Shown here in pieces: positions 1,250-44,035 of a DNA stretch of 64,000 bases. The notes beneath the pieces are model-generated. The model was not told the DNA's origin. It ran no database searches and worked only from the letters and a program-made list of their open reading frames with translations. The stretch is from Gammaproteobacteria bacterium (lineage in GTDB: Bacteria > Pseudomonadota > Gammaproteobacteria > Tethybacterales > Persebacteraceae): the NCBI GenBank assembly GCA_965221835.1, contig OZ244916.1, positions 654,477 through 718,476 on the forward strand. Direction: 5' to 3'. Made by a program: the position numbers and the translations under genes. Position 1 is the stretch's first letter; each line of letters begins with the position of its first letter.

Positions 1250-1876
1250 ATCATAATCCACACCCGCCCAAATGGGCGGGTGAATACTGACGAATTTCGA
1301 GTTGTGTGTGCGGCTGTTTCAATCCACACCCGCCCAAATGGACGGGTGAATGTTGGATAATCACATTCCCGACACTTTTGAGTTTCAATCCACACCCGCC
1401 CAAATGGACGGGTGAATCCACGAAGTCGCAGGGATATGAATCCAACGGTTTCAATCCACACCCGCCCAAATGGACGGGTGAATGACGAAATAAAACTCAA
1501 GCATCCGGTCTATGTTTCAATCCACACCCGCCCAAATGGACGGGTGAATCGGCAGTACGGTTGTTATAACTTCGGCATTGTTTCAATCCACACCCGCCCA
1601 AATGGACGGGTGAATTTCGGCGGCAGAGTCCTCATCTTGTTCTCGTTTCAATCCACACCCGCCCAAATGGACGGGTGAATGGCGGCGGCGGTTTTTCCTT
1701 GATTTTATCGTTTCAATCCACACCCGCCCAAATGGACGGGTGAATCAATTTCCTTCAATGCCATTTTCATATTGTGTTTCAATCCACACCCGCCCAAATG
1801 GACGGGTGAATAAAACCCGAATATGAAGCGGGTTTTCTTTGTTTCAATCCACACCCGCCCAAATGGACGGGTGAAT
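1250..1876 (-). CRISPR. CRISPR array of 10 repeats and 9 spacers. The repeat is 36 bp, GTTTCAATCCACACCCGCCCAAATGGACGGGTGAAT on the plus strand. Its reverse complement ends in GATTGAAAC, as type I-C repeats do. Spacers are 29-30 bp. The terminal repeat at 1250-1285 is degenerate.
   Basis: The repeat recurs with a 65-66 bp period at 1316, 1382, 1448, 1514, 1580, 1645, 1710, 1776 and 1841. Every spacer is unique. The repeat contains an internal palindrome, CACCCGCCCA / TGGACGGGTG. The array abuts the cas genes. Transcription is inferred to run on the minus strand, from the leader at 1877-1939. Confidence 0.95.
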
Positions 1877-1939
1877 AGCAAAATGTTAAAGATCTGTTAA
1901 TTCGCTTTTTTGCGAATAATCGGCGAATTAAAATTACTG
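1877..1939 (-). promoter_or_regulatory. AT-rich CRISPR leader lying between the cas7 stop codon and the first repeat.
   Basis: This is a 63-bp AT-rich stretch sitting directly between the cas7 stop at 1940 and the leader-proximal repeat, which ends at 1876. The repeat-degeneration gradient is consistent with this orientation. Confidence 0.6.
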
Positions 1940-2834
1940 TTATTTTAACCAATCTTCCAGCGTTACGCCCCAACTTTTCGGCGGCGTTTCGGCGGATACT
2001 TCAAAATCGGAAAAAGAACGCGGCGGCGCGGCGGCGTTTTTGCGCGCTACTTTTACCAAATCAAATAACTGATGCGCCGGTCTGTTGCCGAGTTTGCCAT
2101 CGTGCTTAAAAACATACAAACCGCGGACGGACATCATCCCGCGCGCCGCCGAACGGTCGTGTTCAAACATATTCCGCAACGCCTCCCAAAACAACGCCAA
2201 ATCTTCATCGGAAAAACCGATCCGCCGCCAAATGCGCCGAAATAAATCCGTGCGCGCGATACAGCGAATATGGAATCGTGTGCTTCCGCCCCATCGTCCG
2301 ATTGTCGCCGCTTTGTTTTTGCGCCTCCTTTTCGGTGGTGACCGCCATCCGCGTAATGGAATGTTCCAGCGAAACAATCGGCGCAACCGAACGCGCAAAA
2401 GTCATCTGCACCGGTCCGCGCACCTGTCCGCAATTGACGCCGGTGGACATCACCGCGCCGAAAGTGCGAATGTCGTAAAAATTGCCGCACATCCATTTGC
2501 GGAGATTTTTCGGTTCCCTTTCCGTTTTTGTCAACGCGTCATGGGCGCGCTGGTGTTGATTGTTCAGCACTGCCTTTTCTTTTACATAAATTTCATGGCG
2601 CGGCGACTCGCCGATTTTATAACTCTTCGGCTTGCCGTCCGCTTCGTCTTCCGCAAACTTCATTTCCACATAGTTGCGAATTTTGCGTTTCAGGCATACA
2701 TCGGTTACCAGCCCGTCGCCGGTTTCCGCGTCTATGCGCGGGTGATTTCCCGCATCGGGGTCGCCGTTCGGATTGCCGTCCAGCACATCAAAAAGCAATA
2801 CAAAATCATGCCGGTTTTGGATGGGATTATTCAT
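1940..2834 (-). pseudogene. cas7: Type I-C Cas7 (Csd2) with a broken reading frame. The N-terminal 209 aa and the C-terminal roughly 90 aa lie in different frames.
   Basis: The N-terminal part, [56 protein letters not shown], is a classic Csd2 start. That frame stops at 2205 after [15 protein letters not shown] second frame covering 2398 to 1940 carries the expected continuation, [27 protein letters not shown]...LFDLVKV. The junction lies near 2218-2226 in the sequence gcggcggatcgg. A strong RBS (aaggag) precedes the ATG at 2834. Confidence 0.7.
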
Positions 2835-4590
2835 TGTTATTCTCCTTTTTTGTGAAAAAATTCTGCCGCTGATGATAGTAGCCGAGGGCAAACAGCCCCT
2901 GCTCCTGCATTGTCAGTTGCGGCGGGAAATTGGCGAGTTTGCACATAATTTCGCCGACGGTTTTTTGGCGATTGACGGCAAGCCCGGGTTTGGCGTCTTT
3001 TAGTTTACTCAGATGGTGTTGGTGCAATTTTATCAGCGCGGGAAATGCCGCACCCGGCGACGATGACGCCGCACCGTAATAGCGGTCGCGAATGGTGGCG
3101 TTTATGCCGGGATTCGCGTCTTCTTGCAATTTTTCCAGCGCGGCAAACAACGCGCCCAGCCAATACCCCGGCGATTTAACTTCCGGATCCAGTTTCATAT
3201 CAATCTCCTTGTTGAGTTGCAAAGCGGGCGGCAATTGTTCCGCCCGATAAAATCGGTTTATGCAACCGCGCAAAAGCGCGGCGCGGTCCGGCGAAACATT
3301 TTCGCGTCGTTCCCCGTATTTTACGCCCGCGCGGCAACGATTGACCGCCGCCAGAAATGCCGTGCGCGGATACGGCGAATTTTGCAATATCGCCTGCATC
3401 ATTTCGCCGCCCAAATTGGGCGGGATATTGTCCGCCTTGCCTTGCACCGCCGTGGCAACCAGCAAACGAAATAGCCCCGGCGGGCGGGAGTCGTCCGCGC
3501 CGTCAATTTTAATGTCGTCAAAATGCCGCCGAATTCTTTCCGCAACATCTCCTACCGTTCCGTCGTGCCAAAAACGCACCGTCAACCGCACGCGATTCGC
3601 CCACAATCCCAGCACATAAAACGGCAAATCGCCTTCCGCGGCGTATGTTTTTCCGCTTCGGGGCGATTCGTACAATTTTTTCACCGCGGCAGTCCGGCGG
3701 TCGGGATTGTCTTCGGATGCGCCGCCAAATAAAACGCTAAAATCGGTTTCCAGTAGCGCGTCCTTTCCCGCCCAAAACACGGCGGTAGAATCGCCGACCT
3801 TGATTTTTTGTTCGCCAGTCAGCAGCATATTTAACGCGGCGGTGTATTTGTACATTGTCGCTTTTCCCACGGACGCATTTTTTGCCTTTGTTTTGCCGTA
3901 CGAATTAAACGCCGATTGCTTAAACGCGATAACTCCCGCGCCCGCCCCCGCACCGTTCACGCCGCGCACCGCGTTGTGCATATCCGGTATTTCGTCTTCG
4001 TCTCCGGAAATAATGCACCGTCCGTCCGGTTTCGCCGCCGCGCCGACATTTCGTTTTATTTCCGCCGCAACCGGCGGCGAATCGGAAACTATCGCATAAT
4101 CCGAATTTGCCAACTGAAACGACAAATACGCCAGACGCAAACGTTCATCACAAATTTCCGCCCACATCGGATCGCCGCGCACCGCGTCCATATCGGGATT
4201 TTGCAGAAACGCGACAACCGCGCGAACGCCCGAATCTTCGGCGACACTCTCCGGAATTTGCGTTTGTATTTTCCGCAAAAAACTTTCGCGGCGTTTTTTT
4301 GATACGGCGGCGGATGTGCCGCCGACTCCGAAAATATATTCCAAATTGTCGTACAATAAATTCGGATTTATCGCGCTTCCGCCGCGACACGACGGTTTAA
4401 TTGCAACTCTAACCGTATACTTCCCGCCGCGGTCTTTCGCATCGGCGCGGGTATCCTTAAAACCGGCAAACTCGCCGCTTTCGTTCAACACAATCAAAAA
4501 CGGAATTGGTTGATGTTCAAATCCCAGCGGCGGCATTTCGCCGCGCAACATTTTGCGGTCGTAATATTCCGTCAACGCGCGAACAGTCAT
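2827..4590 (-). CDS. cas8c: Type I-C Cas8c (Csd1) large subunit.
   Basis: The 587-aa translation begins [41 protein letters not shown], matching Csd1. It is positioned between cas5c and cas7, as in a canonical I-C operon. Confidence 0.85.
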
Positions 4591-5237
4591 TTGCGAATTT
4601 CCGCGCTATCGGGCGGCGGCAGATGAATCACGCCGTTTTGCATTTTCGCCCGAAACATCATCGGTTTCATTTCATCGGCAAAATCAATGTCGTACAACAT
4701 AAATCCCAAATCGCGGGAGTCGTCAATCGCCGCCCGTGCCGCCGCTTTCGTTCCCGGCGTTGCCAGACAAAACGCCGCCGAAAATTCGCGACATCCCAAA
4801 TACGGCTGATTAAAACACTGCCCTTTTTCCGCCCGCCGCGCAAATATTTCGGCGAATTTAACAATGCCGTCGCCCTCGCCCGCCTTGTCGGTCAATTGCA
4901 ACCGCGCATGCAAACGATACGCCACATCGCGCAAAAACAATCCCGCCCGCTGTTGCCGGTCTTCTTCCACATAAATTCCGCAACCCGCTTTGGACGGCGG
5001 ACGCGCAACACTCCCCACTTCGTTGCGGCGAAGATTAATCCACCGAATCGGTTTTAGTACTTCAATTTTTTCGGGAATCCACCTGATTGCCGGTTTCCAC
5101 ATAATCGCCTCAAAAATCGCCCGCGCCGCGGACGGAGTCATCACATCATAAGAAACGCGTTCCACTTTCATTTCCGGGCGCGTAAAGCAGGCAAAATCGC
5201 CCCAAACTTTCAGGCAAAAAGACGGCGACGATTTCAT
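4587..5237 (-). CDS. cas5: Type I-C Cas5c (Csd5d), the pre-crRNA-processing Cas5.
   Basis: The 216-aa translation contains FCLKVWGDFACFTRPEMKVERVSYDVMTPSAARAIFEAIMWKPAIRW, the Cas5d signature. Its stop overlaps the cas8c start by 4 bp. Confidence 0.9.
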   Translation of the reverse strand: MKSSPSFCLKVWGDFACFTRPEMKVERVSYDVMTPSAARAIFEAIMWKPAIRWIPEKIEVLKPIRWINLRRNEVGSVARPPSKAGCGIYVEEDRQQRAGLFLRDVAYRLHARLQLTDKAGEGDGIVKFAEIFARRAEKGQCFNQPYLGCREFSAAFCLATPGTKAAARAAIDDSRDLGFMLYDIDFADEMKPMMFRAKMQNGVIHLPPPDSAEIRK

Positions 5238-5245
5238 AACCGCGA

Positions 5246-7510
5246 TTATACTCCGCCCCGCCCGGGAATCGCAAACCCCGTTTCGTCCGAATAATTCGCC
5301 GCGCCCGATTCCGTCAGCACAAAAACGCCCGCCGTCAATTCTTCTATTTCGCCGCGACCGCGCATTTCGTCAAAATCTTTTTCCGGCACAGAAACCGAAA
5401 ACCGTTGCAACCCGCGCATCGTTGCACGCAAACGCGCACCTTCCGCCATCTGCAACGTTTTCCGCATTTTTTCGGAACCGGTATACCAAACGATAACCGG
5501 AATTTTTCCGTCTTCTTCAATAAACCGGAACTTCGCCGCCGCATCCCGAAATTGCATCTCGTCCGAACTCAACAGCCGGGAAATTCCTTTGTCATCAAAA
5601 TTGCGAATATCCCGATACAACAATTCAAAATAGCGGCGAAACTTGTCCGGCGTAAACATATCGTCGTCCGCGGCGAACAATTGCCGCATTTCTTGCACGA
5701 CCTGCCACCCCTGACGGATAAAACCCGGCGGCGGTATTTTCGGCGGCATAAACACGCGCAACTCGCCGCCGTCCGGCAATTTTCCTTCGCGGTTGCATCT
5801 TCCCGCCGCCTGCGCAATAGAATCCAATCCCGCCAGCGCGCGCCAGACGACCGGAAAATCAATATCCACGCCCGCCTCTATCAATGTCGTACTGACGACA
5901 ATCACTGGTTCGTTATTTTTCAATCGCGCCTTGATTTTTGCAATTTGTCGCGCGCGATGTTCGCCGCACATCAGCGCGGACAAATGAAAACATTCGGCGG
6001 CACCCCGTCCGATTGCGGACATTCGCGCCTTCGTTTTTTCGTACAAATCGCGGCACTCGTTCCGGCTGTTGACGATGCAAAGCGCGGATTTGTTTTCGCA
6101 AAGTTTTACGGCGATTTCGTCCCATTCCGTTTTTGACAAATCCCAGCGCGCGCGTACGCGCCGGAATTGGTCGCGGCGGAACAATGTTTCCGGCTGTTCG
6201 CAAACTTCGCGCGGCGCGCTGTTCAACGCCGCTTTCGCTTTCCGCAACGATTCCGCCCGAAACGCCGGTTGCGTAGCGGTGCAAAAAACAAAACTCGTTT
6301 TGTAAAACGCCGTCAATTCTTCAATCGCCGCCAAAGTCGGCGCGATCAATTCCAGCGGCAACGTTTGCGCTTCGTCCAAAATAACGACCGAATCGGCGAT
6401 GTTATGCAGTTTGCGACATTTCCCCGGCGCGGCGGCGAAAAGCGATTCAAAAAATTGCACATTCGTCGTAATGACAATCGGTGCGTCCCAATTTTCGGTT
6501 GCCAGCCGATTTTTGTACGCCGCGCGGCGCGCCTGTTCGTCTTCGGATTCTTCGCCGCGAATGTTGGAATGATGTTCCACGACATTGTCGTCGCCGAAAA
6601 CGCCGCGAAAAATATCGGCGGTTTGTTCAATAATGGAAGTGAACGGAATGGCGTAAATAATTCGCCGTTTGCCGTGCGCCGCGGCATGCGCCAGCGCGAA
6701 CGCCATGGACGACAATGTTTTGCCGCCGCCGGTCGGCACCGTGAAACTGAACAATCCCGGCGACTGTTCGCCCGCCGCAACGCATTGCGTCAAAATGTCG
6801 GCGCGGATTTTGTCAATCGCCGTTTTTTCCGCGTCCGTCTTAAAACCTTTCATATAGCCGTCAAACTTTTCGCGCAACGCGGAAATTTCCGCATAATCGC
6901 CGCGCACCGGCGGAACAGGCGAAGAAGATTTTTCCGCATGCAACCGGTCGGCATCCACCAAACACGAAAACAACATTCGCGTCCACAAAGAAAGTCGAAT
7001 CCAAGAAGGGGCGTTTTCATGTCCGGTGTTGCGGCGCAAACACGCCAAACCGGGAATTGTCGCGTTGCGCACAAATTCGGGAAAATGTTTCTCGTTTTTG
7101 CGCGCCTTATCCAGCCATTCGCCTTCGCGGAAAATTCGTTCTTCCAAACTCGCGCCTTTCGCATCGCCGTCTCCGCAATTCGGCAAGCCGGTGTGATGTC
7201 CGAAAATGACAAACGACAACAACTTCGCCGCGCATTTTTCTTCCGCATTTTTTGCGAGAAAGTTTTGCGCGTACAATCCGCCCGCCGAGGAATGTTTAAT
7301 TTTTCCGCGCGGCGCATTAATTTCGCCGCGTAAATATTGTTGAAACTCATCGCCGTATTTGCCGAGGTCGTGCAATCGCCCCGCCAACGTCGCCCATTCT
7401 TTCGCGCCAAAAACGGCGGCAAATCCTCCCGCATTTTTACCGACCGAATTTAAATGTTCCGCCAAATCGCATTTGGTGTTTTCGGAAAAATGCGAAAAAA
7501 ATGTTTTCAC
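5246..7510 (-). CDS. cas3: Cas3 HD-nuclease/helicase with a GTG start.
   Basis: The 754-aa translation has an N-terminal HD domain (HDLGKYGDEFQ), a Walker A motif (VPTGGGKT) and a DEAD-like VILDEAQ motif. The GTG start lies 4 nt after the mpl stop codon. Confidence 0.9.
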   Translation of the reverse strand: MKTFFSHFSENTKCDLAEHLNSVGKNAGGFAAVFGAKEWATLAGRLHDLGKYGDEFQQYLRGEINAPRGKIKHSSAGGLYAQNFLAKNAEEKCAAKLLSFVIFGHHTGLPNCGDGDAKGASLEERIFREGEWLDKARKNEKHFPEFVRNATIPGLACLRRNTGHENAPSWIRLSLWTRMLFSCLVDADRLHAEKSSSPVPPVRGDYAEISALREKFDGYMKGFKTDAEKTAIDKIRADILTQCVAAGEQSPGLFSFTVPTGGGKTLSSMAFALAHAAAHGKRRIIYAIPFTSIIEQTADIFRGVFGDDNVVEHHSNIRGEESEDEQARRAAYKNRLATENWDAPIVITTNVQFFESLFAAAPGKCRKLHNIADSVVILDEAQTLPLELIAPTLAAIEELTAFYKTSFVFCTATQPAFRAESLRKAKAALNSAPREVCEQPETLFRRDQFRRVRARWDLSKTEWDEIAVKLCENKSALCIVNSRNECRDLYEKTKARMSAIGRGAAECFHLSALMCGEHRARQIAKIKARLKNNEPVIVVSTTLIEAGVDIDFPVVWRALAGLDSIAQAAGRCNREGKLPDGGELRVFMPPKIPPPGFIRQGWQVVQEMRQLFAADDDMFTPDKFRRYFELLYRDIRNFDDKGISRLLSSDEMQFRDAAAKFRFIEEDGKIPVIVWYTGSEKMRKTLQMAEGARLRATMRGLQRFSVSVPEKDFDEMRGRGEIEELTAGVFVLTESGAANYSDETGFAIPGRGGV

Positions 7511-8861: not shown

Positions 8862-9526
8862 AGCGGTTTGATTCCGGTATCTTTTTCCATCGCATCCAAA
8901 AATAATTCGTGTGCGGCAAGTTCTGTTGCAGACGGCGCGCGCGAAATAATTTTTTTCGCTTGCAAAATATCTTTTGCTTTTGCACCGCGCGACATACTCA
9001 TCGCGATTTGTTCACGCGTCATTGCAAAATAAACTTGCGCCAAAAGACGGGCGTCCAAAAGCGCGCTGTGTGTTGTGCGTTCCGAATCGTCAACGCCGAA
9101 ATGTTTGCATAAATCTTCCAAACGATGATGCCGAAGTCCTTGGTTTTTTAGACGCGACATTTCCAAAGAACATGTTATTTTGCAAATATCTTCCAGCGGC
9201 GGCATTCCGCATATTTTAAATTCTGAATTTAAAAATCCTTTGTCAAAAGCGGCGTTGTGAATAATGACTTCGCCGCCTTGCAAAAAGTTTTGCAATTGTT
9301 CTGCAATTTCCGAAAAATCCGGTTTGTCCGCCAAAAACTCATCGGAAATGCCATGTACTTTTTTTGCGTCCGCATCAATAGCGCGATGCGGATTGCAGAA
9401 AAAATGTATACTTTCAAACGCGTTCGTGCGGCGGTCGGGATAGGTCAGGGCGACGACTTCCACGATGCGATGTCCGCGTTCCACTTCCAAACCGGTAGTT
9501 TCGGTATCCAAAAAAATTTGTCTCAT
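8849..9526 (-). CDS. dnaQ: DNA polymerase III epsilon subunit (3'-5' exonuclease). The true start is the internal ATG at 9526 of the longer listed ORF.
   Basis: The translation begins [13 protein letters not shown] and contains HNAAFD. This gives a 225-aa product. The upstream extension of the listed ORF overlaps rnhA. Confidence 0.9.
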
Positions 9527-9960
9527 TGTTGTGCCGCCTCGCTTGCGCCCCGGTTTGCCAAATTGTCCGCCGCTTCGTTGCCGTCGTTGCCCGCATGCCC
9601 TTTCAGCCACCGCCATTCCACGCGATGACGCATCGCTGCTTGTTTTAGCAACTTCCACAAATCTGCATTTTTTATCGGGCGTTTTTTGGCGTTGAGAAAT
9701 CCGCGCCGTTCCCAATTCGGCAACCATTCGGTAATTCCTTTTTGCAAGTACGCGGAATCGGTATACAACACCACTTCGCATTCGCGTTTTAACGATTCCA
9801 GCGCGCGAATTGCGGCGCACATTTCCATCCGATTGTTGGTTGTGTCGCGTTCGCCGCCGTACAATTCTTTTTTCGTTTCGCCCCAATACAATACCGCCCC
9901 CCAGCCGCCGGGACCGGGATTGCCTTTGCATGCGCCGTCCGTATAAATCACAACTTTCAT
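9523..9960 (-). CDS. rnhA: Ribonuclease HI.
   Basis: The translation begins [21 protein letters not shown] and runs to DNLANRGA, 145 aa. Its stop overlaps the dnaQ start by 4 bp. Confidence 0.9.
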
Positions 9961-10658
9961 CGCCGGCACTCCGCTTTTGCTTTGGACGGCGCACGCCAGA
10001 ACGGAATGCGGCGATGACGCAAACGCCGAATCATTCGCATCCCGCAAGTATATTTTGTCGCGCTTAAAATATAAACGCCGCCGGCAAGCGGCCACCATCG
10101 CCGTCCGGCTTTTTCCATCCAGCCGAACCATTTACGATGACGGCGGCGATGCGGCGGCATAAACGCCGCGAATTGTCCTTCTTCGGCGGATAAATTCAAC
10201 AGCGTCAACCAATCTTTAACGCGCATCAGCGAAATCCAGTTTTTGCGCCACGGCATTACCGAAATCCGCGCACCCAACAAACTCCACGGATTGAATCCTA
10301 TAACCAACAGCCGCCCGTGCGGACGCAACACCCGCGCCGCTTCGCGCAATACTTCGTGCGGCGCACCGGATGCTTCCAAAGCGTGCGCAAGAACGATGCA
10401 ATCTACCGATTCCGCGGCAAACGGCAATGCCGTCCAGTCGGCGACAATGCTGCAATCGCGATTGACGCCGACAATCGCATGACTGCGCACCGGCACGCGC
10501 AAAATGCGGCGGCGATAACCGAGTTGCAACGCATAAAATCCGAACACTTCGCCGCTCATCATCCGGCAGCAACGCATTTCTTGCGCCATTATGCCGCGCC
10601 CGAATTCGGACGCGAACCAGTTTTCGGATTTGTTTTCGCCGGCGGATTGTATTAACAT
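9957..10658 (-). CDS. Class I SAM-dependent methyltransferase. The start is uncertain: M1 at 10658 or M24 at 10589.
   Basis: The translation contains a VLDLACGTG-like methyltransferase type 11 region ([23 protein letters not shown]...[11 protein letters not shown]). It sits downstream of rnhA, as in other Neisseria genomes. Confidence 0.7.
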
Positions 10659-11543: not shown

Positions 11544-11582
11544 ACAAAAACCGGCGGGGATTCCGTTTCCCCGCCGTTTTTT
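11544..11582. terminator. Intrinsic terminator hairpin, CCGGCGGGGATTCCGTTTCCCCGCCG followed by T6. An identical copy is present at 23668-23714.
   Basis: An 8-9 bp GC-rich stem with a U-tract lies downstream of gloB. A 39-bp identical sequence recurs about 12 kb away. Confidence 0.7.
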
Positions 11583-11738
11583 ATGGGAATTCGGCGCGCT
11601 GTGGAATTCGCAACTTCGGCGATAAACGGCGGCGGGAAAATCCGCAACTGCGGCGAAAGTTTATTCTCGGAAGCGAACGCGGGAATGGAAAAAAGCGGCA
11701 ATTTTTTCGGTTTGCGGTCTTTGCGCTATAATTGACGG

Positions 11739-12251
11739 ATGCAAAAAAATATGTCCGAAATGCGCGCGCGATTTCGCCGCTATCTATCTTCGCTTTTGCT
11801 TGCAGAATTGTGCCGGGGAATGGCGCTGACTTTCCGGCAGATGTTCCGCCGCAAAATCACCGTGCATTTTCCCGAAGAAAAAACACCGCGCAGCCCCCGA
11901 TTTCGCGGACTGCACGCCTTGCGCCGCTATCCGAACGGCGAAGAACGATGCATCGCTTGCAAATTGTGCGAGGCGGTTTGTCCGGCGATGGCGATTCATA
12001 TCGCTTCCGAACAACGCGAAGACGGCAGCCGCCGCACTACTCAGTACGACATTGATTTAACCAAATGCATTTTTTGCGGAATGTGCGAAGAGGCGTGTCC
12101 CGTTGATGCAATTGTAGAAACGCATGTTTTGGAATATCACGGCGAACGGCGCGGCGATTTGTACTACACAAAAGAAATGCTGCTCGCCGTGGGCGATAAA
12201 TACGAAGCGGAAATCGCTTCCGCCCGCAAAACCGATGCCGCTTATCGCTAA
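11739..12251 (+). CDS. nuoI: NADH-quinone oxidoreductase subunit I (2x[4Fe-4S] ferredoxin). It is isolated from any nuo operon.
   Basis: The translation contains [31 protein letters not shown] and [18 protein letters not shown], and is near-identical to NuoI over its full length. A TATAAT box lies about 20 bp upstream. Confidence 0.85.
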
Positions 12252-14418
12252 ACTTTTCCGCGCAACGGCGGCGGCGATTGTTCTCGGCATATTGTCGCCA
12301 TCTTTCGCCGAACCCGTCTCGGCGTATTCGCCGGAAAAAGAAATAGAAGAATTGGAACAGCGGTTTGTGCGCCAAGAAATTCTCGCCTTGCAGCGGGTGG
12401 AAGATGTGGAAACGCGGATTGAAATATTGGACCGCCATTTCAATCGCGTTTTTTTGATTTTGGGATTATCGGCGGCACTTGCGTTGATGCTTTTCGCCGC
12501 CCATCAACGCAGTCGCAATCGCTTAAATACCGAACGCTTAAATCGTGCCGTGCGCGAAGCCGATATGTTGCGAGACGATATTCGCCGCGAATTGCATCGC
12601 CCGGAAACGGAGTTTTTGCGCATCGGACATTTTTTGCGAAGAATGATGCGCGAATCGCTGGACGCCAAACCCGCCGAACGACATTTTTCGGAAATTCGTG
12701 CCATTATTCGCGACCCTAATGTGCCGGTGTCGCTGCATTATATGGCGCAAATTTTGCTTTTTGAACACGATTCGCGTTGGCGAGATGCCGAACATGTTTT
12801 GGAACAACTTCGGCAAATGGATCCCGAAGATCCTTTCGTACTTTTGCATTTATTTCATGTACATACCCGCATTTCCGAAGGTTCGGGCGATTCGTACGAC
12901 CGCAAACGCCATCGTCAAACCGCAAATCAATACTACGCCCAATTTGCAGTTATCGCGCAAACAAAAGACATTCCCGCCTCTCCGGCAACGGCGAAAAAAT
13001 CCCCGCCCGCCCCGAAAACGCCGCCCCCGGCAATTGCCGCCGCCGAATCCGAATCCGAAAACGCTTCCAAAACTGCCGAAAACGATTCCGAATTTGATTC
13101 CGAATCCGCCGCCGAAAACATTACCAAAAACGCCGCTGAATCCAAATCCAAATCCGCCGCCGAATCCGAATCCAAATCCGCCGCCGAATCCGAATCCGAA
13201 TCTGCATCCAAAATTGCCGAAAACGTTTCTGAATCTGATTCCGAATCCGTTGCCAAATCCGCCGCCGAATCTAAATCCAAAACTTCCGAAAACGTTTCTG
13301 AATCTGATTCCGAAAACATTGTCAAAAACGCCGCTGAATCCGAATCCAAATCCGCCGCCGAATCTAAATCCAAAACTTCCGAAAACGTTTCTGAATCTGA
13401 TTCCGAATCTGCTTCCGAAAACATTGTCAAAAACGCTGTTGAATCTGAATCCAAAACTTCCGAAAATGTTTCTGAATCTGATTCCGAAAACATTGCCGAA
13501 AACGTTTCTGAATCTGAATCCAAAACTTCCGAAAAAGATTCCGAAAACGATTCTGAATCTGAATCCGAATCTGGTGCGGAAGTGCAAACGAATATTTCCA
13601 AACCGCAATCGGAAATTGTGCATACAAAACCCGCGCAATCGCCGCCGGTTAAAACCGAATTCGCTCCTCCTCAAATTGTACCGCCCAAACCGCCGAAAAC
13701 GGCGGAAACAAAGCCCGCTCCGAAAATGCCGCCGTCATTGCCGTCCGCCGCAAACGGCAAAAAACGTCCCGCCGAAAATTTATTAATGAAAAAAATCGGC
13801 AAACTATCATGGCGGGGAATCGGCGGCGCAATCAAAAACAAAACCGTCAATTTAATCGGCGAAGCAACGAATGTTGCCGGAAAAATTAACAACGGCGCGA
13901 ACGGCGACATCCCGCCGTTTTTGCCGGTGCCCGCAATTTCCGAATTGCCGGAAAAAAAAGGAACGGCAGAAAGCGAAATGTGGAAATGCATTCGCGCCGG
14001 TGATTTGGCAATGGCGCAAGCCGCCGCAGTTGCGAATATGCGTCATCGCAATCGTTTGATAGACCGCGCGTTAATTTCTTATGCGCAAGCGCAAGGACAC
14101 AAAACTAACGAAACTTTGTATTTGAATTGGGGATTGTCTTTGCTCGGCAAGGCGTTGCATTTGCCGCTCAAAAAACGCGAACCATTTTTTAATGCCGCCA
14201 TAGATAAATTTTTGGCGGGCAATGTTATCAGTCCGCACCGTTTTGATTTTTCGCTGGCGACTTTATACGCTATCATCGGGCGCGAAACCGAGTGCAAACA
14301 ATGGCTTGCCACAGCGCGCGAATCGGGAACGCTGAATTTGGAATCGTTGCATCATGCGCCCGATTTTGACGGCGTGCGCAATCAGCCGTGGTTTGCCGAA
14401 TTCATGCGCGACGAATGA
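12235..14418 (+). CDS. Hypothetical membrane protein. It has an N-terminal signal/anchor, a coiled coil, a second transmembrane segment, an acidic Ser/Glu-rich tandem-repeat region, a Pro/Lys-rich linker and a C-terminal helical (TPR-like) domain.
   Basis: The 727-aa reading starts at the ATG at 12235, overlapping the nuoI end. Hydrophobic segments [14 protein letters not shown] and [18 protein letters not shown] are present. Repeats of the form [31 protein letters not shown] recur. A proline-rich stretch, [28 protein letters not shown], follows. Confidence 0.6.
13020..13600 (+). repeat. Imperfect in-frame tandem repeats of roughly 69-bp units, encoding Ser/Glu/Lys-rich acidic repeats.
   Basis: The motif gaatc(c/t)gaatccaaa(a/t)c... 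recurs many times. Antisense and alternative-frame ORFs here are artefacts of this repeat: 12698-13786 (PNPNPP-rich) and 12850-13674 (GFGFGG-rich). Confidence 0.8.
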
Positions 14419-16046
14419 TTCCTTCCGTTTTTATTGCGCAACGCGATTATCCGGTCGGCGCGCTCGCCCGAAATCGTTGCGCTATTTTGGCGGCGGCACA
14501 ACAAGCGCAAAAAAACGATGCATGCGCAGCGCTTACGCCGGAACTCGCGTTGACCGGCTATTGCCCGGACGATATGCTTTTTGATTCTTCGTTTATGGAT
14601 GCGGTGGAACGCGAGTTTGAAATACTCGCCGCGGAAGTGCCGCCGCTGCCGCTGATTGTCGGATTGCCGTGGCGCGAAGATGGAAAATTGTACGGCGCGG
14701 CGGCGTTGTTGCAAAACGGGCGCGTTGAATTTGTTTACAAAAAAACGCGTTTGCCGAACGAATCGGTATTTGACGAACGGCGATATTTTACCGCCGGAAA
14801 CGAATCGCCGCCGTGTTTTGAATCGGGCGGCGTAAAATTCGCTGTGCAAATTTGCGCCGATGTGTGGGATGTTTCGCAAGGTGCGCGAGTCGCCGAATGC
14901 GGCGCCGATTTTGTATTGTCGCCGAATGCCTCGCCGTTTCATCTCGGCAAACACGCCGAACGATTGCGCGCCGCCCGCGCATTTGTTGCCGCCGCCCGCG
15001 CCGGTTTATTTTATTGCAATTCGGTCGGCGGACAAGACGAATTGGTGTTTGACGGCGCATCTTTTTTTATGGACAAAGACGGCGCGGTGCAACGACAATC
15101 GCCCGCATTTGCGGCGGATGATGGCGGCGACAACATCGCGCAATATCCGGATGACGACGAGGCGGCGTATTCCGCATTGGTGACGGGACTTCGCGATTAT
15201 GCCGCTGCCGCCGGATTTCGCGGCGCGGTGTTCGGATTGTCGGGCGGAATCGATTCGGCATTAACCGCGGCGATTGCAGCAGACGCCCTCGGCGCAAAAA
15301 ACTTGCTGGCGGTGATGATGCCCTCCCCCCATACTTCCGCCGCGAGTTTGCAAGACGCCGCTGCAATCGCCTCCAATCTCGGTCTGGAATTGTTGACGAT
15401 TCCGATAAATCCGCTGATGGAATCGTTTGCCGCCGCGTTGTCGCCGCATTTGCAAACGCGAGACGGCGACATAACGCACGAAAATATACAAGCGCGTCTG
15501 CGCGGAATGTTGCTGATGGCGTTGTCCAACAATCGCGGATTGTTGACTCTCGCAACCGGCAACAAAAGCGAACTCGCTTGCGGTTACGCGACTTTATACG
15601 GCGACATGTGTGGCGGTTTTGCGCCGCTGAAAGATGTTGTCAAAACGCGCGTGTGGACGCTTTCGCGTTATCGCAACCGGCGCGGCGAAGTCATTCCCGC
15701 GCGCGTTATTTCCCGCGCCCCGTCCGCCGAATTGCGCGACAACCAAACCGACCAACAAACATTGCCGCCGTACGAAACGATAGATGCCGCCATCGCCGCG
15801 CATGTGGAAAACGGTGCGCCTTTTGGCGAATGGACTCGCGCGGCGGGTGCGCAAACGGCGCGACAATTTTTAACTCTTCTCGCGGCGGGCGAACATAAAC
15901 GGCGGCAAGGCGCGCCGGGACCAAAAATTACATCCCGCGCATTCGGACGCGATTGGCGAATGCCGATTGCGAATCGTTTTCGTTATCCGTTGCAAAACGA
16001 GTCGCCGAACGCGGCGAATGAAAACAATGCCGACAATGTCGATTGA
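14415..16046 (+). CDS. nadE: Glutamine-dependent NAD+ synthetase, with an N-terminal CN-hydrolase domain.
   Basis: The translation contains a GLSGGIDSALTAAIA PP-loop and an N-terminal nitrilase-like domain. The start is the ATG inside ATGA overlapping the upstream stop. Confidence 0.9.
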   Translation: MIPSVFIAQRDYPVGALARNRCAILAAAQQAQKNDACAALTPELALTGYCPDDMLFDSSFMDAVEREFEILAAEVPPLPLIVGLPWREDGKLYGAAALLQNGRVEFVYKKTRLPNESVFDERRYFTAGNESPPCFESGGVKFAVQICADVWDVSQGARVAECGADFVLSPNASPFHLGKHAERLRAARAFVAAARAGLFYCNSVGGQDELVFDGASFFMDKDGAVQRQSPAFAADDGGDNIAQYPDDDEAAYSALVTGLRDYAAAAGFRGAVFGLSGGIDSALTAAIAADALGAKNLLAVMMPSPHTSAASLQDAAAIASNLGLELLTIPINPLMESFAAALSPHLQTRDGDITHENIQARLRGMLLMALSNNRGLLTLATGNKSELACGYATLYGDMCGGFAPLKDVVKTRVWTLSRYRNRRGEVIPARVISRAPSAELRDNQTDQQTLPPYETIDAAIAAHVENGAPFGEWTRAAGAQTARQFLTLLAAGEHKRRQGAPGPKITSRAFGRDWRMPIANRFRYPLQNESPNAANENNADNVD

Positions 16047-16488
16047 ACGCGCCGCAAAAACACCCGCCGCTGCCGCCGCCATGGCGCGCCGATTTGCGCG
16101 TGCATTGCCGCCGCCGCCGATGCATTTGCATTTGCGCGGCGAGTTGGGAGCGGGCAAAACATTGTGGGCGCGCGCCGTCATTAAAGAATTGGGCGGCGGG
16201 CATGCGCCGAGTCCGAGTTATGCAACGGCGTTGTCTTACCCATCGCCGAAAATGCCGGTGCATCATTTAGATTTATTTCGTCTGCCGCCGCATTCGTTGT
16301 TGCCCGGCGAGTTGTCGGAGTTGCTTGGCGAAAATGCGTTGTGCATTGTGGAATGGCCGGAACGGGCGGCGGATTTACCGGCGGCGGATGTGGAAGTGCA
16401 TTTCCATTTCGCCCCTGCGGGTAGACGGCTGATTTTTACCGCCGCCGGAGAACGGGGAGAAAAATGTTTGCGCGCTTTTTTACGTTGA
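16018..16488 (+). CDS. tsaE: tRNA threonylcarbamoyladenosine biosynthesis ATPase TsaE (YjeE).
   Basis: The translation contains the P-loop GELGAGKT and is about 156 aa. It precedes amiC-mutL-miaA, as in the conserved operon. Confidence 0.8.
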   Translation: MKTMPTMSIERAAKTPAAAAAMARRFARALPPPPMHLHLRGELGAGKTLWARAVIKELGGGHAPSPSYATALSYPSPKMPVHHLDLFRLPPHSLLPGELSELLGENALCIVEWPERAADLPAADVEVHFHFAPAGRRLIFTAAGERGEKCLRAFLR

Positions 16489-17597
16489 TATTGTCGCTTG
16501 TTTTGTTGTCGCCGGTACGCGGCGCAGATTTTGATGCGCGTCTGTGGCCGGCGGCAGACCGAACGCGTCTCGTGATAGAAACATCCGCACAAGTGGAATA
16601 CCGAATTTTAAGTTTGCAAAATCCCGCCCGTTTGGCGGTAGACATTACCGACACAAAAAATAACGCCGATTTTTTGAACGACATTTCGCTGCGAGATGCA
16701 TCTTATTTGGGCGGTTTGCGCGCCGCACGACACGACAACAACACGCTGCGGTTGGTGTTTGACATCGCGGCGAAAATTAATTACGAAGTGCGCGCTATCG
16801 CCCCCGTCGCCGGCTATGCGCATCGTTTGGTAATAGACATTGCGCCGCAAGAATATACAGATCCGTTGCTCGCGCTCATTCGTTCGCTGGAAGAAAAAGA
16901 TCGCGAAGATGTACCGCAGTTTTTGGTACTAATAGATCCCGGACACGGCGGCGAAGATCCCGGTGCGGTCAGCAAAAATAATATTTATGAAAAAGATATT
17001 GTTTTATCTATTTCGCGAAAATTGAAAGAAGAAATTGAACGCCGTCCGGGAATGCGCGCGATATTGACGCGTTCCGAAGATCGTTTTTTGCCGCTTGCAC
17101 AACGAGTGTTAATCGCGCATCGTTTGGAAGCGGACGCTTTTGTATCGGTGCATGCCGATTCGGTTGCATCATCAAAAGCGAGTGGTTCGTCGGTGTTTAT
17201 GTTGTCGCAGCGAGGTGCAAGTTCCAAACTCGCGCAGCGATTGGCACGAGACGCGAATTTGTCCGACATTGTCGGCGGTGCGGCGGACGACCCGCAGTTT
17301 TCCGCCGCCTTGCCCGCTTTTTTTAAGGACGGCAAAGAACGCGCCTCGCGCACGCTTGCGATGTTGCTTGTTAAAGAAATTTCCGCAATTAATAAAATGC
17401 ACAAAAAGGAAGTGGAATCGGCGGGGTTTGCGGTATTAAAATCGCCGTCCATTCCTTCGGTGCTTGTTGAAACTGCTTTCATCAGCAATCCGCACGAAGA
17501 AAAAAAGTTGCGCAACGAATCCTTTCAGCAAAAAATGGCATCCGCCATCGCCGAAGGTTTGGATCAATATCGCCGCTGCTGCGAAGTGAGCGAATAA
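16464..17597 (+). CDS. amiC: N-acetylmuramoyl-L-alanine amidase with an N-terminal AMIN domain and a signal peptide.
   Basis: A signal peptide (MFARFFTLILSLVLLSPVRGADF) is followed by the amidase_3 motifs IDPGHGGEDPGA and VSVHAD. Confidence 0.9.
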   Translation: MFARFFTLILSLVLLSPVRGADFDARLWPAADRTRLVIETSAQVEYRILSLQNPARLAVDITDTKNNADFLNDISLRDASYLGGLRAARHDNNTLRLVFDIAAKINYEVRAIAPVAGYAHRLVIDIAPQEYTDPLLALIRSLEEKDREDVPQFLVLIDPGHGGEDPGAVSKNNIYEKDIVLSISRKLKEEIERRPGMRAILTRSEDRFLPLAQRVLIAHRLEADAFVSVHADSVASSKASGSSVFMLSQRGASSKLAQRLARDANLSDIVGGAADDPQFSAALPAFFKDGKERASRTLAMLLVKEISAINKMHKKEVESAGFAVLKSPSIPSVLVETAFISNPHEEKKLRNESFQQKMASAIAEGLDQYRRCCEVSE

Positions 17598-25273: not shown

Positions 25274-26599
25274 TTAGATATATCCGAGTTCGTGCAGCCG
25301 TTTGCGGGCGTTTTCCATTGTGCGCGTTGATTTAATGGTGTTGCACGAACCGCAAAGAAGTTGCAAATTTCCGTCCACATCCGGACCGCCTTTTGCGCGG
25401 GGAATAATATGATCTAAATGAAAATAACGCGGTTCAAAATGGTGTTTGCAAAGATTGCAATTACCCCCCTGTCGTCCGTACAAAATTTGGCGAATATCCC
25501 GGCTGCGGATTTGTTTATAATCGGTGCGCATCGGGCAGTCGTTTTTAATGTTGCGGTGATGCACTTTCCGCTCGCCTTCGCCGAGTTTGCCTTTTTCGGT
25601 TTCCGATTTCAGCCGGGCTTTTACCAAACTTGCCGCCTTTTCGGCAACATCAATTCCAATCCATTTTCGGTCCAATCTTTCGGCGGCGATGCAAGTTGTC
25701 GCGCAACCGCAAAACGGATCAATAACCAAATCGCCTTCGTTGGAGGATGCAAGAACGATTCTTTCCAAAAGCGCGAGTGGTTTTTGCGTCGGGTATCCGG
25801 TGCGTTCGGGGGAATTCGGACCGAATGTAATTTCCCACCAATCTTCCGGAACTTTTCCCGCCGAATGCCGTGCCGCCAATTTTTCGGGCGGATCCCCCTT
25901 CCATATTCCGGATCCTCCGCGATTTCTTTCGGGGATATTTTTCCGTTCGGGCATGCGGGAAAGTTTGTAAGGCACGCGAACGGAATCGGCGTTAAAAACA
26001 TAATTCTCCGTTTTGCTATACCGGAAAATTAAGTCATGTTTTCGCGGAAAATCTTTTTTTGCGCTGCTTGTTGACGCATAACACCAGACAATTTCGTTGC
26101 GAAAATTGTTGTCGCCAAAAACAATATCCATAAGAAGTTTCAGCGAATGCGACATCGTCGGGTCGCAATGCAAATAAATGCTGCCGGTCGGTTTCAGCAG
26201 TCGCCGCATTTCCATCAATCGCGCCGCCATAAACGATAAATACGCCATTTCCGCATTGCCAACGATTTCGCCCATCGTTTCCAAAAAGCGCACGATTTTT
26301 TTCGCCGTTGCGCCGTCTATCAGCGGATTCCCGTCCGCCGCCGCCGCAATCAATTCGTCAAACGCATACAACTCCGCGTACGGCAAATACGGATTTTTTT
26401 CGTCCGCCGCGCTGTCCCAACCCCAAATATCCTTAAATCCAAACTCGGCGGAACCGCCTTTTCCAATCGGAAAAACAAACTTTTTATTGAACGGCGGATC
26501 TAGATAAATTAAATCCACCGTTTCGGAATTCATCGCGCGCATCACCTCCAAATTGTCGCCAGTAAACAAAGTCCGATTTTCTATCTGTTTTTTACTCAT
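25274..26599 (-). CDS. DNA methyltransferase (beta-class N6-adenine/N4-cytosine family, DPPF motif) fused to a C-terminal HNH nuclease domain. This is copy 1.
   Basis: The translation contains DLIYLDPPFN (motif IV), then ERTGYPTQKP and VIDPFCGCATT (motif I), then C-terminal CNLCKHHFEPRYFHLDHIIPRAKGGPDVDGNLQLLCGSCN (HNH). The start is placed at MSKKQIENR, which has an RBS (aaaagga). Confidence 0.8.
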   Translation of the reverse strand: MSKKQIENRTLFTGDNLEVMRAMNSETVDLIYLDPPFNKKFVFPIGKGGSAEFGFKDIWGWDSAADEKNPYLPYAELYAFDELIAAAADGNPLIDGATAKKIVRFLETMGEIVGNAEMAYLSFMAARLMEMRRLLKPTGSIYLHCDPTMSHSLKLLMDIVFGDNNFRNEIVWCYASTSSAKKDFPRKHDLIFRYSKTENYVFNADSVRVPYKLSRMPERKNIPERNRGGSGIWKGDPPEKLAARHSAGKVPEDWWEITFGPNSPERTGYPTQKPLALLERIVLASSNEGDLVIDPFCGCATTCIAAERLDRKWIGIDVAEKAASLVKARLKSETEKGKLGEGERKVHHRNIKNDCPMRTDYKQIRSRDIRQILYGRQGGNCNLCKHHFEPRYFHLDHIIPRAKGGPDVDGNLQLLCGSCNTIKSTRTMENARKRLHELGYI

Positions 26600-26757
26600 A
26601 ACATTCCTTTTCAATTCCGATATCCGCAAAAACTAATTATACCCGAATCCCGCCGCCGTTAAATGGTAATCGTGCGGGGTGATTTTCATTGTTCATCATT
26701 TCCGTGGCGGGCGGAGTCGGGGGCTTAATGGTGGGAAGATTTGTTTTGGTCATTTTT

Positions 26758-34957: not shown

Positions 34958-35135
34958 ACCACATCACGCGAGATCTTTCCGACTCTGTCGGGTGGCTCGT
35001 GAATACAATACCCGATAACGGAGGGAATAATTAACCCGCCGGGGGAATAAACGGGGACATTCAGGAAGGTCTGCGTGTGATGTGGTAATCCTCCCGACTT
35101 TTTGGGGGACTTTGTCATTACCGCAAAGGACTACT
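34958..35135 (+). promoter_or_regulatory. Long structured 5' leader of the second MTase-HNH gene. A long-range stem (ACCACATCAC at 34958-34967, GTGATGTGGT at 35067-35076) encloses about 100 nt. The leader shows partial sequence similarity to the leader of copy 1.
   Basis: A 10-bp perfect long-range inverted repeat is present, with internal hairpins (CCGACTCTGTCGG). The motifs CCGACTC and TAACGG.GGG.ATAATT also occur in the leader of copy 1, which spans 26757-26600 on the minus strand. Confidence 0.4.
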
Positions 35136-36461
35136 GTGAACCAAGCGCAAATAGAGAACCGGACTCTGTTTACCGGCGACAATTTGGAAGTGATGCGCGC
35201 CGTCAATTCCGAGACGGTGGATTTGATTTATCTGGATCCGCCGTTTAACAAAAAATTCGTTTTTCCGATTGGAAAAGGCGATTCCGCCGAATTCGGATTT
35301 AAAGATATTTGGGGATGGGATAGCGCACCGGATGAAGGCAATCCGTATTTGCCGTACGCGGAGTTGGCGGCGTTTGACGAACTTGTGGCGGCGGAAGCGG
35401 ACGGCAATCCGTTAATAGACCGCAAGATGGCGAAAAACACCGTCCGCTTTTTGGAAACGATGGGACAAATCGCCGGCGAAGCGGAAATGGCGTATTTGTC
35501 GTTTATGGCGGCGCGTTTAATTGAAATGTGGCGGTTGCTGAAACCGACCGGCAGCATTTATTTGCACTGCGACCAAACAATGTCGCACTCGCTTAAACTT
35601 TTGATGGATATTGTTTTCGGTGAAAATAATTTCCGCAACGAAGTTATTTGGTGTTATGTCGGTGGCGGAAACGCAAAAAACGCTTTTAACAAAAAACATG
35701 ACACGGTCTTTTTTTACACGAAACAAAAAAATCGTTCGTTTTTTAATTGGAAAGATGTTGCTATGCCATATAATAATATTCCGCTTACGGCGCAATGGCG
35801 CAAAGGGTTTACAAACAGACAAGAAGCGGAAAAACGCGCCTTGGCAAAATATAAAGATGGCAAAGCGCGATATGATTGGTGGACGGATATTCCATCTTAT
35901 GGAACGGCTACGCGGAATCCCGAAAGAACCGGCTACCCGACTCAAAAACCGGTTTTGCTTTTGGAAAGAATCATAAAAGCGTCCAGCAACGAAGGCGATT
36001 TTGTTCTTGACCCGTTTTGCGGATGCGCGACAACTTGCGTTGCCGCCGAAAGATTAAACCGCCATTGGTGCGGAATTGATGTTGCCGAAAAAGCGGCGCA
36101 ACTCGTTCGCGCCCGCCTTCTTGCCGAAACAAAACAAGGCAAACTCGGCGACAAAGTACCGCAAGTGCATCACCGCGATTTCGGCAAAGGCGATTTTCCG
36201 ATGCGCACCGATTTGGGCGATTCGCGCAGTAAAAATATCCGCATAGTTTTGTTTGGAAATCAGGAAGGCAAATGCAATCTTTGTAAACGCCGTTTTGATT
36301 TGCGCGATTTTGAGGACGATCATATTATTCCGCGCAAAAAAGGCGGACCGGATGTTGACCGCAATTTGCAATTGCTTTGCAGTTCGTGCAACCGAATTAA
36401 ATCCACGCGCACAATGGAACAAGCCCGCAAACGACTGCGCGAATTGGGATACGCCGCTTAA
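35136..36461 (+). CDS. DNA methyltransferase (DPPF, beta-class) fused to a C-terminal HNH nuclease. This is copy 2, with a GTG start.
   Basis: It is about 70% identical at the protein level to the 25274-26599 product. The N-terminal 200 aa are near-identical, and the DNA is about 85-90% identical there. HNH motif: CNLCKRRFDLRDFEDDHIIPRKKGGPDVDRNLQLLCSSCN. An RBS (aaagga) lies 5 nt before the GTG. Confidence 0.8.
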   Translation: MNQAQIENRTLFTGDNLEVMRAVNSETVDLIYLDPPFNKKFVFPIGKGDSAEFGFKDIWGWDSAPDEGNPYLPYAELAAFDELVAAEADGNPLIDRKMAKNTVRFLETMGQIAGEAEMAYLSFMAARLIEMWRLLKPTGSIYLHCDQTMSHSLKLLMDIVFGENNFRNEVIWCYVGGGNAKNAFNKKHDTVFFYTKQKNRSFFNWKDVAMPYNNIPLTAQWRKGFTNRQEAEKRALAKYKDGKARYDWWTDIPSYGTATRNPERTGYPTQKPVLLLERIIKASSNEGDFVLDPFCGCATTCVAAERLNRHWCGIDVAEKAAQLVRARLLAETKQGKLGDKVPQVHHRDFGKGDFPMRTDLGDSRSKNIRIVLFGNQEGKCNLCKRRFDLRDFEDDHIIPRKKGGPDVDRNLQLLCSSCNRIKSTRTMEQARKRLRELGYAA

Positions 36462-43555: not shown

Positions 43556-43684
43556 GGTTTTGCTCCTCTGATTAAAAATGTCTGCGAAAGTATAACACAT
43601 TCCGCCCGAATCAACAAAAAAACGGGCGGGTTCGGCAAGAAATGCGTAAATTGCTGATTTCCCGCCTTTTTTCTGCATTTCCGT

Positions 43685-43936
43685 GCGTTCGGAAATGTTT
43701 TCAGAGCGTTCCAAAATGTTTTCAGAGCGTTCGGAAATGTTTTCAGAGCATTCCGAAAAGTTTTCAGAGCGTTCGGAAATGTTTTCAGAGCATTCCGAAA
43801 TGTTTTCAGAGCATTCCGAAATGTTTTCAGAGCGTTCGGAAAAGTTTTCAGAGCGTTCGGAAATGTTTTCGGAGCGTTCGGAAATGTTTTCAGAGCATTC
43901 GGAAATGTTTTCAGAGCGTTCGGAAAAGTTTTCCGA
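43685..43936. repeat. Twelve tandem copies of a 21-bp unit (GCGTTCGGAAATGTTTTCAGA and variants), 130-380 bp upstream of the 42122-43555 gene.
   Basis: The units are head-to-tail with an exact 21-bp period and minor variants (gcattccgaaat, gcgttccaaaat). The ORFs 43642-44052 and 43683-43967 are translation artefacts of this array. Confidence 0.9.
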
Positions 43937-44035
43937 GACCTCGCAAAACATTTGCGGGGTTTTGTGAACGCCCTTTTTTGCCGAAAATTTTCGGCTGTGG
44001 TACAATTGGCATTCGCACATTTGGAATTGAAATTA

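Follow-up and report, generated by a model that had tools for sequence, protein, structure and literature searches.

The window analysed here is the whole stretch of 64,000 nucleotides (nt) taken from contig OZ244916.1 (assembly GCA_965221835.1, positions 654,477 to 718,476), which derives from a gammaproteobacterium of the Persebacteraceae, order Tethybacterales, and whose source organism has a contig of ~1.98 Mb and a G+C content of 52.8%. Between the genes nuoI and nadE it carries an open reading frame (ORF) for a protein of 727 amino acids (aa), to which we gave the name X. This protein represents a real, conserved and undescribed family of inner-membrane proteins, in which two folded modules are joined by a long disordered tether; in the species of the window the tether appears to have been expanded by an acidic Ser/Glu tandem repeat that differs from strain to strain. 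The features of the locus are collected in Table 1.

The start codon of X lies inside nuoI, which is overlapped by 17 nt (nuoI TAA at 12249-12251), the overlapping ATG arising from the Asp-Ala codons at the C-terminal end of NuoI. The same start was picked by an independent gene caller in the sister strain L006. At the other end an ATGA (14415-14418) overlaps the stop of X with the start of nadE. No Shine-Dalgarno sequence was seen before the ATG of X, which is consistent with coupling to nuoI without being proof of it. Three ORFs in alternative frames over the repeat (12698-13786 on the forward strand, 12850-13674 and 12933-13601 on the reverse strand) were rejected as by-products of its hexamer unit. 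A first-pass annotation of this DNA had described the ORF with its nuoI overlap, a signal peptide or anchor followed by a coiled coil and a second transmembrane segment, in-frame acidic repeats of 23 aa (69 bp), a Pro/Lys-rich linker and a helical C-terminal domain; each of these elements was found, the putative coiled coil as a helix and the last of them modelled at high confidence by AlphaFold2 (predicted local distance difference test, pLDDT, >90).

Table 1. Coordinates of X, its predicted parts and the other annotated features, numbered from the first letter of the window
Feature	Position	Strand	Details
X coding sequence	12235..14418	+	727 aa; ATG 12235, stop 14416-14418
Putative signal peptide of X	12235..12309	+	aa 1-25; cleavage before EP; basic n-region, hydrophobic core, S-F-A at -3/-1
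Predicted periplasmic helix of X	12310..12444	+	aa 26-70; net charge -6; conserved pattern QxxLxLRRxExVExR
Predicted transmembrane (stop-transfer) helix of X	12445..12504	+	aa 71-90
Membrane-proximal TPR-like domain of X, predicted cytoplasmic	12505..12969	+	aa 91-245
Short basic Pro-rich segment of X, start of disordered linker	12970..13038	+	aa 246-268; 35% Pro; net charge +3; pLDDT <50
Acidic Ser/Glu tandem-repeat tract of X	13039..13575	+	aa 269-447; 179 aa; 23-aa unit; net charge -31; pLDDT <50
Basic Pro/Lys-rich linker of X	13576..13794	+	aa 448-520; disordered in model
Conserved pre-domain segment of X	13795..13962	+	aa 521-576; short helix aa 541-548 and 16-residue motif aa 561-576
C-terminal TPR domain of X	13963..14415	+	aa 577-727; pLDDT >90; 'TPR end-of-group' cap PDFDxVRxxPWFxEF at end
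Bidirectional terminator-like hairpin, gloB-nuoI gap	11552..11576	both	9-bp stem, 8 G-C pairs, stretches of T on each strand
nuoI (NADH-quinone oxidoreductase subunit I)	11739..12251	+	gene callers favour ATG 11751
nadE (glutamine-dependent NAD synthetase)	14415..16046	+	NAD_synthase and CN_hydrolase domains
tsaE and amiC (AMIN and Amidase_3)	15967..17597	+	mutL and miaA come next, to 20290
cas3	5246-7510	-	type I-C locus
cas5c	4587-5237	-	type I-C locus
cas8c/Csd1	2827-4590	-	type I-C locus
cas7	2205-2891 and 1940-2398	-	type I-C locus; split in two ORFs, looks frameshifted

Only two hydrophobic segments were found in X, at aa 1-25 and aa ~70-90. The first has the features of a signal peptide with a cleavage site predicted by rule, and signal-peptidase sites of the type A-x-A followed by Q or E occur in the homologs. 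The second segment, over which the Kyte-Doolittle plot has its maximum (2.29 over aa 72-90), is spanned by a single unbroken helix (aa 33-120) modelled with a pLDDT >90. When the residues around this helix were compared in 31 family members, the mean net charge was -0.45 in the 15 residues before it and +3.2 in the 15 residues after it. Since this positive-inside bias is combined with a signal peptide that is followed by a stop-transfer helix, the C-terminal ~640 aa of X are placed in the cytoplasm and some 45 aa are predicted to be periplasmic, making X a predicted type I bitopic inner-membrane protein with its N-terminus outside and its C-terminus inside. The suggestion, made earlier for this ORF, of an envelope-spanning protein of the TolA kind does not agree with this arrangement, in which the cleavable A-x-A signal peptide, the stop-transfer helix and the distribution of charges leave the bulk of the protein on the cytoplasmic side; a TolA/TonB-like identity was thus rejected on topology.

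An AlphaFold2 model of X, built with an alignment of 34 family sequences, has a pLDDT >90 at aa 40-245 and aa 560-727 and <50 at aa 246-555. The N-terminal of the two folded parts was matched by the tetratricopeptide repeat (TPR) families TPR_14 and TPR_19, and a separate model of this domain reached a pLDDT of 92. As for the C-terminal domain, the model TPR_END_plus (NF047558) matches 30 of the 34 family members, with a best E value of 4.9e-10, the NCBIfam match of X itself being below threshold. Remote matches of the C-domain profile were TPR proteins of the TOM20_plant type that are fused to SIR2_2 or ParA domains. In a Foldseek search with the full-length model the top 50 matches were all TPR domains, headed by three-TPR peptide-binding proteins (FKBP38, SycD/PcrH, Sgt2 and the designed CTPR3), the output giving no indication of which of the two domains produced them. 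At the level of the fold X thus belongs to the TPR superfamily. An origin of the two modules by internal duplication was rejected, as an hhalign comparison of the N-terminal with the C-terminal module detected no relation (probability 1.6%). Ahead of the C-terminal domain lies a 16-residue motif (aa 561-576) that is invariant in close homologs at P561, L563, P564, V565, P566, S569 and P572, and that decays in the wider family to LPxLPxPxxSxxP. Because this stretch was modelled with a pLDDT of 91-94 despite having no secondary structure, it probably packs against a folded domain.

The two folded ends are well conserved: when X was compared with distant homologs the N domain was 48-60% identical and the C domain 65-83%, whereas the middle could not be aligned. 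Full-length family members have a linker of 120-498 aa. Of 28 linkers examined, several of them from partial proteins, 24 were basic (isoelectric point, pI, 9-11) and rich in Pro and Ala. In X the segment at aa 463-520 has 26% Pro and a net charge of +8. Elsewhere in the family the linker carries unrelated, lineage-specific repeats of its own (PPELPK ten times, AQPQAA seven times, PPVSEI five times and AVNNNA five times), found in the members P0042, P0029, P0022 and P0025, and these arose independently in the same disordered linker. The acidic Ser/Glu repeat was found, among family members, in the species of the window only. The property of the linker that is conserved is therefore that of a long disordered tether, and its acidic character is a novelty at the species level; the description of X as "highly acidic" does not extend to its family. 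X offers a clean natural case of a disordered tether that evolves by lineage-specific tandem repeats, in which a basic linker has turned acidic and the folded domains at either end have stayed fixed.

The acidic tract was resolved by Tandem Repeats Finder (reporting threshold 50) into overlapping arrays over 13037-13573, with periods of 69 and 105 bp and scores of 191-306. Arrays with a period of 69 were reported at 13037-13314 (4.0 copies, score 243), 13196-13357 and 13336-13564, and one with a period of 105 at 13055-13455 (3.9 copies, score 306); sub-periods of 24, 12 and 6 bp were also seen. Taken over the somewhat wider interval of aa 269-462, the protein has 28% Ser, 22% Glu and a pI of 4.1. 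As most family linkers examined are basic, have much Pro and Ala and often carry repeats of another kind, the acidic tract is, judged from the proteins compared, a species-specific expansion in the tether, outside the conserved core of the family. It had been proposed that the copy number of the repeat could vary between strains, and a comparison with 14 near-identical proteins of other assemblies (678-739 aa) bore this out: the repeat allele was distinct in all 14, with lengths of 130-191 aa, and always in frame. The N domain was identical in 13 of the 14 variants, as was the C domain in 13 of the 14. At the DNA level the window and L006 differ by ~1-1.5% substitutions and by 138 gap columns, all of them within 13135-13734, and the flanks showed a single gap column (15835-16134). 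The repeat tract could serve directly as a marker for typing strains of the symbiont, since 14 strain variants whose genomes diverge by only ~1% had 14 distinct alleles.

When 1.84 billion representative sequences were searched with the C-domain profile, 29 clusters of 520-950 aa were recovered at E<1e-30, and every full-length cluster had a signal peptide, a transmembrane helix at aa ~50-110 and the C-terminal domain. The family thus comprises some 30 sequence clusters with a shared architecture, all of them from metagenomes or metagenome-assembled genomes (MAGs). Its named members come only from MAGs of Ca. Tethybacterales symbionts of sponges and nudibranchs, and are the proteins of Ca. Eurynomebacter symbioticus, the WSBS OTU1 MAG of the Persebacteraceae, Tethybacterales (PMC12625764), and of Ca. 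Doriopsillibacter californiensis Df01 (PMC10262491). A search of genome contigs with two narrow peptide patterns returned one locus, L001, which says little on distribution. In Pfam and NCBIfam scans of X, and in the NCBIfam scan of 34 members, no family was found that covers X, and LysM gave no match to X at E<=1 in Pfam, in agreement with the first-pass annotation, which had noted the lack of this domain. X therefore defines an undescribed family without a Pfam or NCBIfam model in the widespread and uncultured Ca. Tethybacterales.

Upstream, the transcription unit of X is bounded by the strong terminator-like hairpin in the gloB-nuoI gap. After it, nuoI, X, nadE, tsaE, amiC, mutL and miaA follow head to tail with overlaps. 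A perfect TATAAT was seen at 11727-11732, just upstream of nuoI. The product of nuoI is a full NuoI equivalog (NF004538, 295 bits against a cut-off of 135, covering model positions 3-162 of 162) with two 4Fe-4S motifs (Fer4), and it stands isolated, as a Pfam scan of the larger window ORFs showed no other nuo gene. From this arrangement, X is predicted to be co-transcribed with nuoI upstream and nadE downstream, and it is probably also translationally coupled with both.

The gene order of the X block is the same in the loci L001 to L011. In each of the nine lineages examined X is followed immediately by nadE, and the order X-nadE(-glnB)-tsaE-amiC was found in 9 of 9. Directly upstream of X, nuoI was found in six of the nine, namely the species of the window (also L006), L001, L003, L004/5, L010 and L011, and it was missing from this position in L002, L007 and L009. 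The neighbour upstream of nuoI changes by lineage (gloB, a DUF gene, Cys_Met_Meta_PP, nuoH or ruvX). In L010 the order is nuoF-G-H-I-X-nadE, and the nuo operon is fragmented in relatives; this order suggests that X was at first located behind a piece of the nuo operon whose last gene was nuoI. The same 17-nt overlap of nuoI and X was found in the window, L001 and L011, though the X proteins are down to ~29% identical, and in another MAG X and NuoI have consecutive accessions on one contig of 8.7 kb. L002, the most divergent full-length lineage, has a nadE called as two ORFs (143 and 397 aa, at 8865-10477), possibly split, and a glnB (P-II) gene inserted between nadE and tsaE.

Several other loci were observed in the window. 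A type I-C CRISPR-Cas locus occupies 1250-7510, with its genes on the reverse strand and an array at 1250-1905 beside the cas genes that is made of 10-11 repeats of the 36-nt unit GTTTCAATCCACACCCGCCCAAATGGACGGGTGAAT. As there is no room for cas4, cas1 and cas2, the system may be degenerate or may be without adaptation genes. Two paralogous genes encoding a fusion of a DNA methylase (N6_N4_Mtase) and an HNH endonuclease lie about 9 kb apart (25274-26629 on the reverse strand and 35082-36461 on the forward strand), and an Eco57I-type restriction-modification methylase was found at 62247-63803 on the reverse strand. An ORF of 632 aa at 42122-44020 (reverse strand) had no Pfam family above threshold, its sole match being a sub-threshold, coiled-coil-looking one to IFT57.

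With regard to function, we lean, at somewhat better than even confidence, towards X being a bitopic, membrane-tethered TPR recruitment scaffold of a small undescribed family, with a disordered tether that bears a species-specific repeat. In such a protein the cleavable signal peptide would place a conserved helix of ~45 aa in the periplasm, to be followed by the single stop-transfer helix. The cytoplasmic ~640 aa would then consist of a membrane-held TPR module, a disordered tether of ~310 aa, the PxLPxP-type motif and the end-capped C-terminal TPR domain. Partners in the cytoplasm or associated with the membrane could be bound through short peptide motifs in the TPR grooves, whose reach would be set by the flexible tether; FimV/HubP and ZipA operate on the same principle. 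The repeat within the tether is built on a GAATC[CT] (Glu-Ser) hexamer, and gain or loss of units, by slipped-strand events or recombination, would alter the length and charge of the tether from strain to strain and leave the folded modules untouched. The repeat also makes the tether a block polyampholyte (net +3, -31 and about +8), and it is a matter of speculation that such a tether is expanded and repelled from the anionic membrane. Recruitment as such is inferred by analogy, from TPR domains in general and from the layout of FimV/HubP (PMC12918733).

A number of observations weigh against the scaffold reading. The topology on which it builds is a prediction from charge and signal-peptide rules. 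The similarity to TPR proteins is generic, with a Foldseek E value of only ~0.2 for the full-length model, and searches of PDB sequence profiles with both domains gave nothing significant (E >= 0.2), the best matches being the TPRs of PA4667 and CDC27 for the N domain (E 0.2) and one at E 0.9 for the C domain. Repeats that vary to this degree are more commonly a feature of proteins exposed at the surface. The conserved charged pattern of the periplasmic helix suggests an additional function there, which a scaffold does not explain, and the linkage to nuoI in six of nine lineages may mean that a specific role is hidden by the generic label.

This last point leads to an explanation which we regard as unlikely, that X is a factor linked to complex I and works with NuoI or the complex, for instance in anchoring the Fe-S subunit or in its assembly or tethering, in organisms with a fragmented nuo operon. 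Since nuoI is preceded by a different gene in each case, the nuoI-X junction must have outlasted rearrangements that broke nuoH from nuoI, and the order seen in L010, the 17-nt overlap kept identical between members of only ~29% identity, and the adjacent X and NuoI of the further MAG all point the same way. As the junction and its overlap were kept through at least five upstream rearrangements, one could go on to view the nuoI-X pair as a functional unit and X as a previously unknown membrane-anchored TPR partner of NuoI or complex I, acting in assembly, tethering or regulation and bearing a disordered tether that evolves rapidly, which we consider similarly doubtful. Three lineages (L002, L007 and L009) have X without nuoI upstream, the linkage to nadE-tsaE-amiC is more universal, and the adjacency may persist only through the nuoI promoter and translational coupling. 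We know of no bacterial complex I factor with the architecture of X, and a literature search did not return one. The unusual persistence of the junction gives a clue, open to testing, that X might be an accessory protein of complex I. The genes on the other side of X could be taken to argue for a tether of the divisome or cell wall, with a logic like that of ZipA, which would connect a cytoplasmic component of division or elongation to the membrane and be expressed together with AmiC, the septal amidase. The nadE-tsaE-amiC(AMIN)-mutL-miaA block has X at its head throughout, and the X transmembrane helix, structured segment, Pro-rich linker and C-terminal binding domain parallel what is generally known of ZipA. 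However, no ZipA_C (PF04354), SPOR, LytM or FtsZ-binding signature was found in X in the Pfam and NCBIfam scans. The cluster tsaE-amiB-mutL-miaA is a widespread housekeeping cluster, and because its members are functionally unrelated, adjacency to it carries little information. We give this role a slim chance.

Two further explanations concern the origin and the location of X. It appears quite improbable that X is a diverged FimV/HubP/TspA orthologue which has lost its LysM domain and still has a landmark or organising role. In its predicted topology and the sequence of its parts X does match FimV, the acidic repeats of HubP vary in number among close species, and FimV/HubP homologs are very divergent in sequence (PMC12918733). 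On the other hand X has no LysM and only 45 periplasmic residues, no FimV, HubP or TIGR03504-type model matched X or the 34 members at E<=1 in NCBIfam, a scan that did return TPR_END_plus, the linker of the family is basic rather than acidic, and the one relative imaged by fluorescence in situ hybridisation is coccoid, in which a "pole" is ill-defined (PMC12625764). There is, finally, a very slight chance that the bulk of X lies outside the cytoplasm, in a TolA/TonB-like envelope-spanning protein or in a surface 'eukaryotic-like' TPR protein with repeats facing the host or phages. The presence of a signal peptide, the resemblance of the Pro/Lys-rich spacer to those of TonB and TolA, the strain-hypervariable acidic Ser-rich repeats of a kind typical of surface proteins, and an enrichment of TPR proteins in a related symbiont genome (PMC12625764) would fit such a location. 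It is opposed by the hydrophobic 20-residue helix after the signal peptide and by the family-wide positive-inside bias, which would keep the C-terminal part in the cytoplasm, as well as by the lack of TonB_C, TolA or LPXTG features in X in the Pfam and NCBIfam scans and the absence of acidic repeats from all other family members. MSCRAMM SD-repeat models did score on X, with 30-45 bits against cut-offs of 999-2500, and these matches were restricted to the low-complexity aa 256-457; an MSCRAMM identity was rejected on the scores, the matches being compositional only.

FimV and HubP are pole organisers and ZipA is the membrane tether of FtsZ. The system closest to X in layout is that of FimV/HubP. 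FimV has a signal peptide, a transmembrane helix, a cytoplasmic internal TPR, a disordered acidic region and a C-terminal TPR (PMC12918733), and the likeness to FimV/TspA that had been noted for X holds for this order of parts, while the lack of LysM and of a match to the FimV C-terminal motif keeps X out of that family. Like FimV, HubP and TspA, X has a predicted signal peptide, periplasmic N-terminus and single transmembrane helix; like FimV it has a TPR inside an extensive cytoplasmic region that is for the most part disordered, and it ends, as do FimV and HubP, in a TPR module, which in those proteins is a hub for client binding. As in HubP, the imperfect acidic repeats differ in number and sequence between close relatives (PMC12918733). 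Unlike FimV and HubP, X has neither LysM nor any other peptidoglycan-binding domain, its periplasmic part being a 45-aa helix, and FimV models do not pick up its C-terminal TPR. The linker of its family is basic and Pro/Ala-rich, turning acidic in the window species only (net -31 over the tract), its genomic context is that of nuoI and nadE-tsaE-amiC, and its hosts are small-genome symbionts of which at least one is coccoid.

With ZipA, by general knowledge, X shares a bitopic arrangement with the N-terminus outside, the bulk inside and a Pro-rich tether leading to a C-terminal partner-binding domain. However, ZipA has neither a cleaved signal peptide nor TPRs, and its C-terminal domain is alpha/beta, whereas that of X is an all-helical TPR domain. 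A membrane anchor, an extended spacer rich in Pro, Lys and Glu and a C-terminal globular domain are likewise found in TonB and TolA, but in these the anchor is not preceded by a signal peptide, X has no TonB_C or TolA domain III, and the predicted topology is the opposite, with the spacer of X in the cytoplasm. The C-terminal modules of the SIR2_2-TPR and ParA-TPR proteins, which are of the TOM20_plant/TPR_END_plus type, align with aa ~610-727 of X (E 1e-10 to 1e-20) and carry PF06552, TPR_11 and TPR_17; these proteins, unlike X, are soluble and multi-TPR with N-terminal enzymatic or NTPase domains, and have no signal peptide, transmembrane helix or disordered tether. With the Ser-Asp regions of MSCRAMM proteins such as ClfA and SdrC/D, X has in common a low-complexity, acidic, Ser-rich, dipeptide-based repeat of strain-variable length, but an A domain, an LPXTG motif and a cell-wall context are all missing from X, whose repeats are predicted to lie in the cytoplasm. 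These findings overturn no current understanding, and their value is descriptive and hypothesis-generating. X represents a new family within the anchor-tether-TPR hook class, restricted to one lineage, rather than a novel type of system, its architecture converging on the design known from FimV, HubP and ZipA, that is, an anchor, a disordered tether and, in X, a TPR hook.

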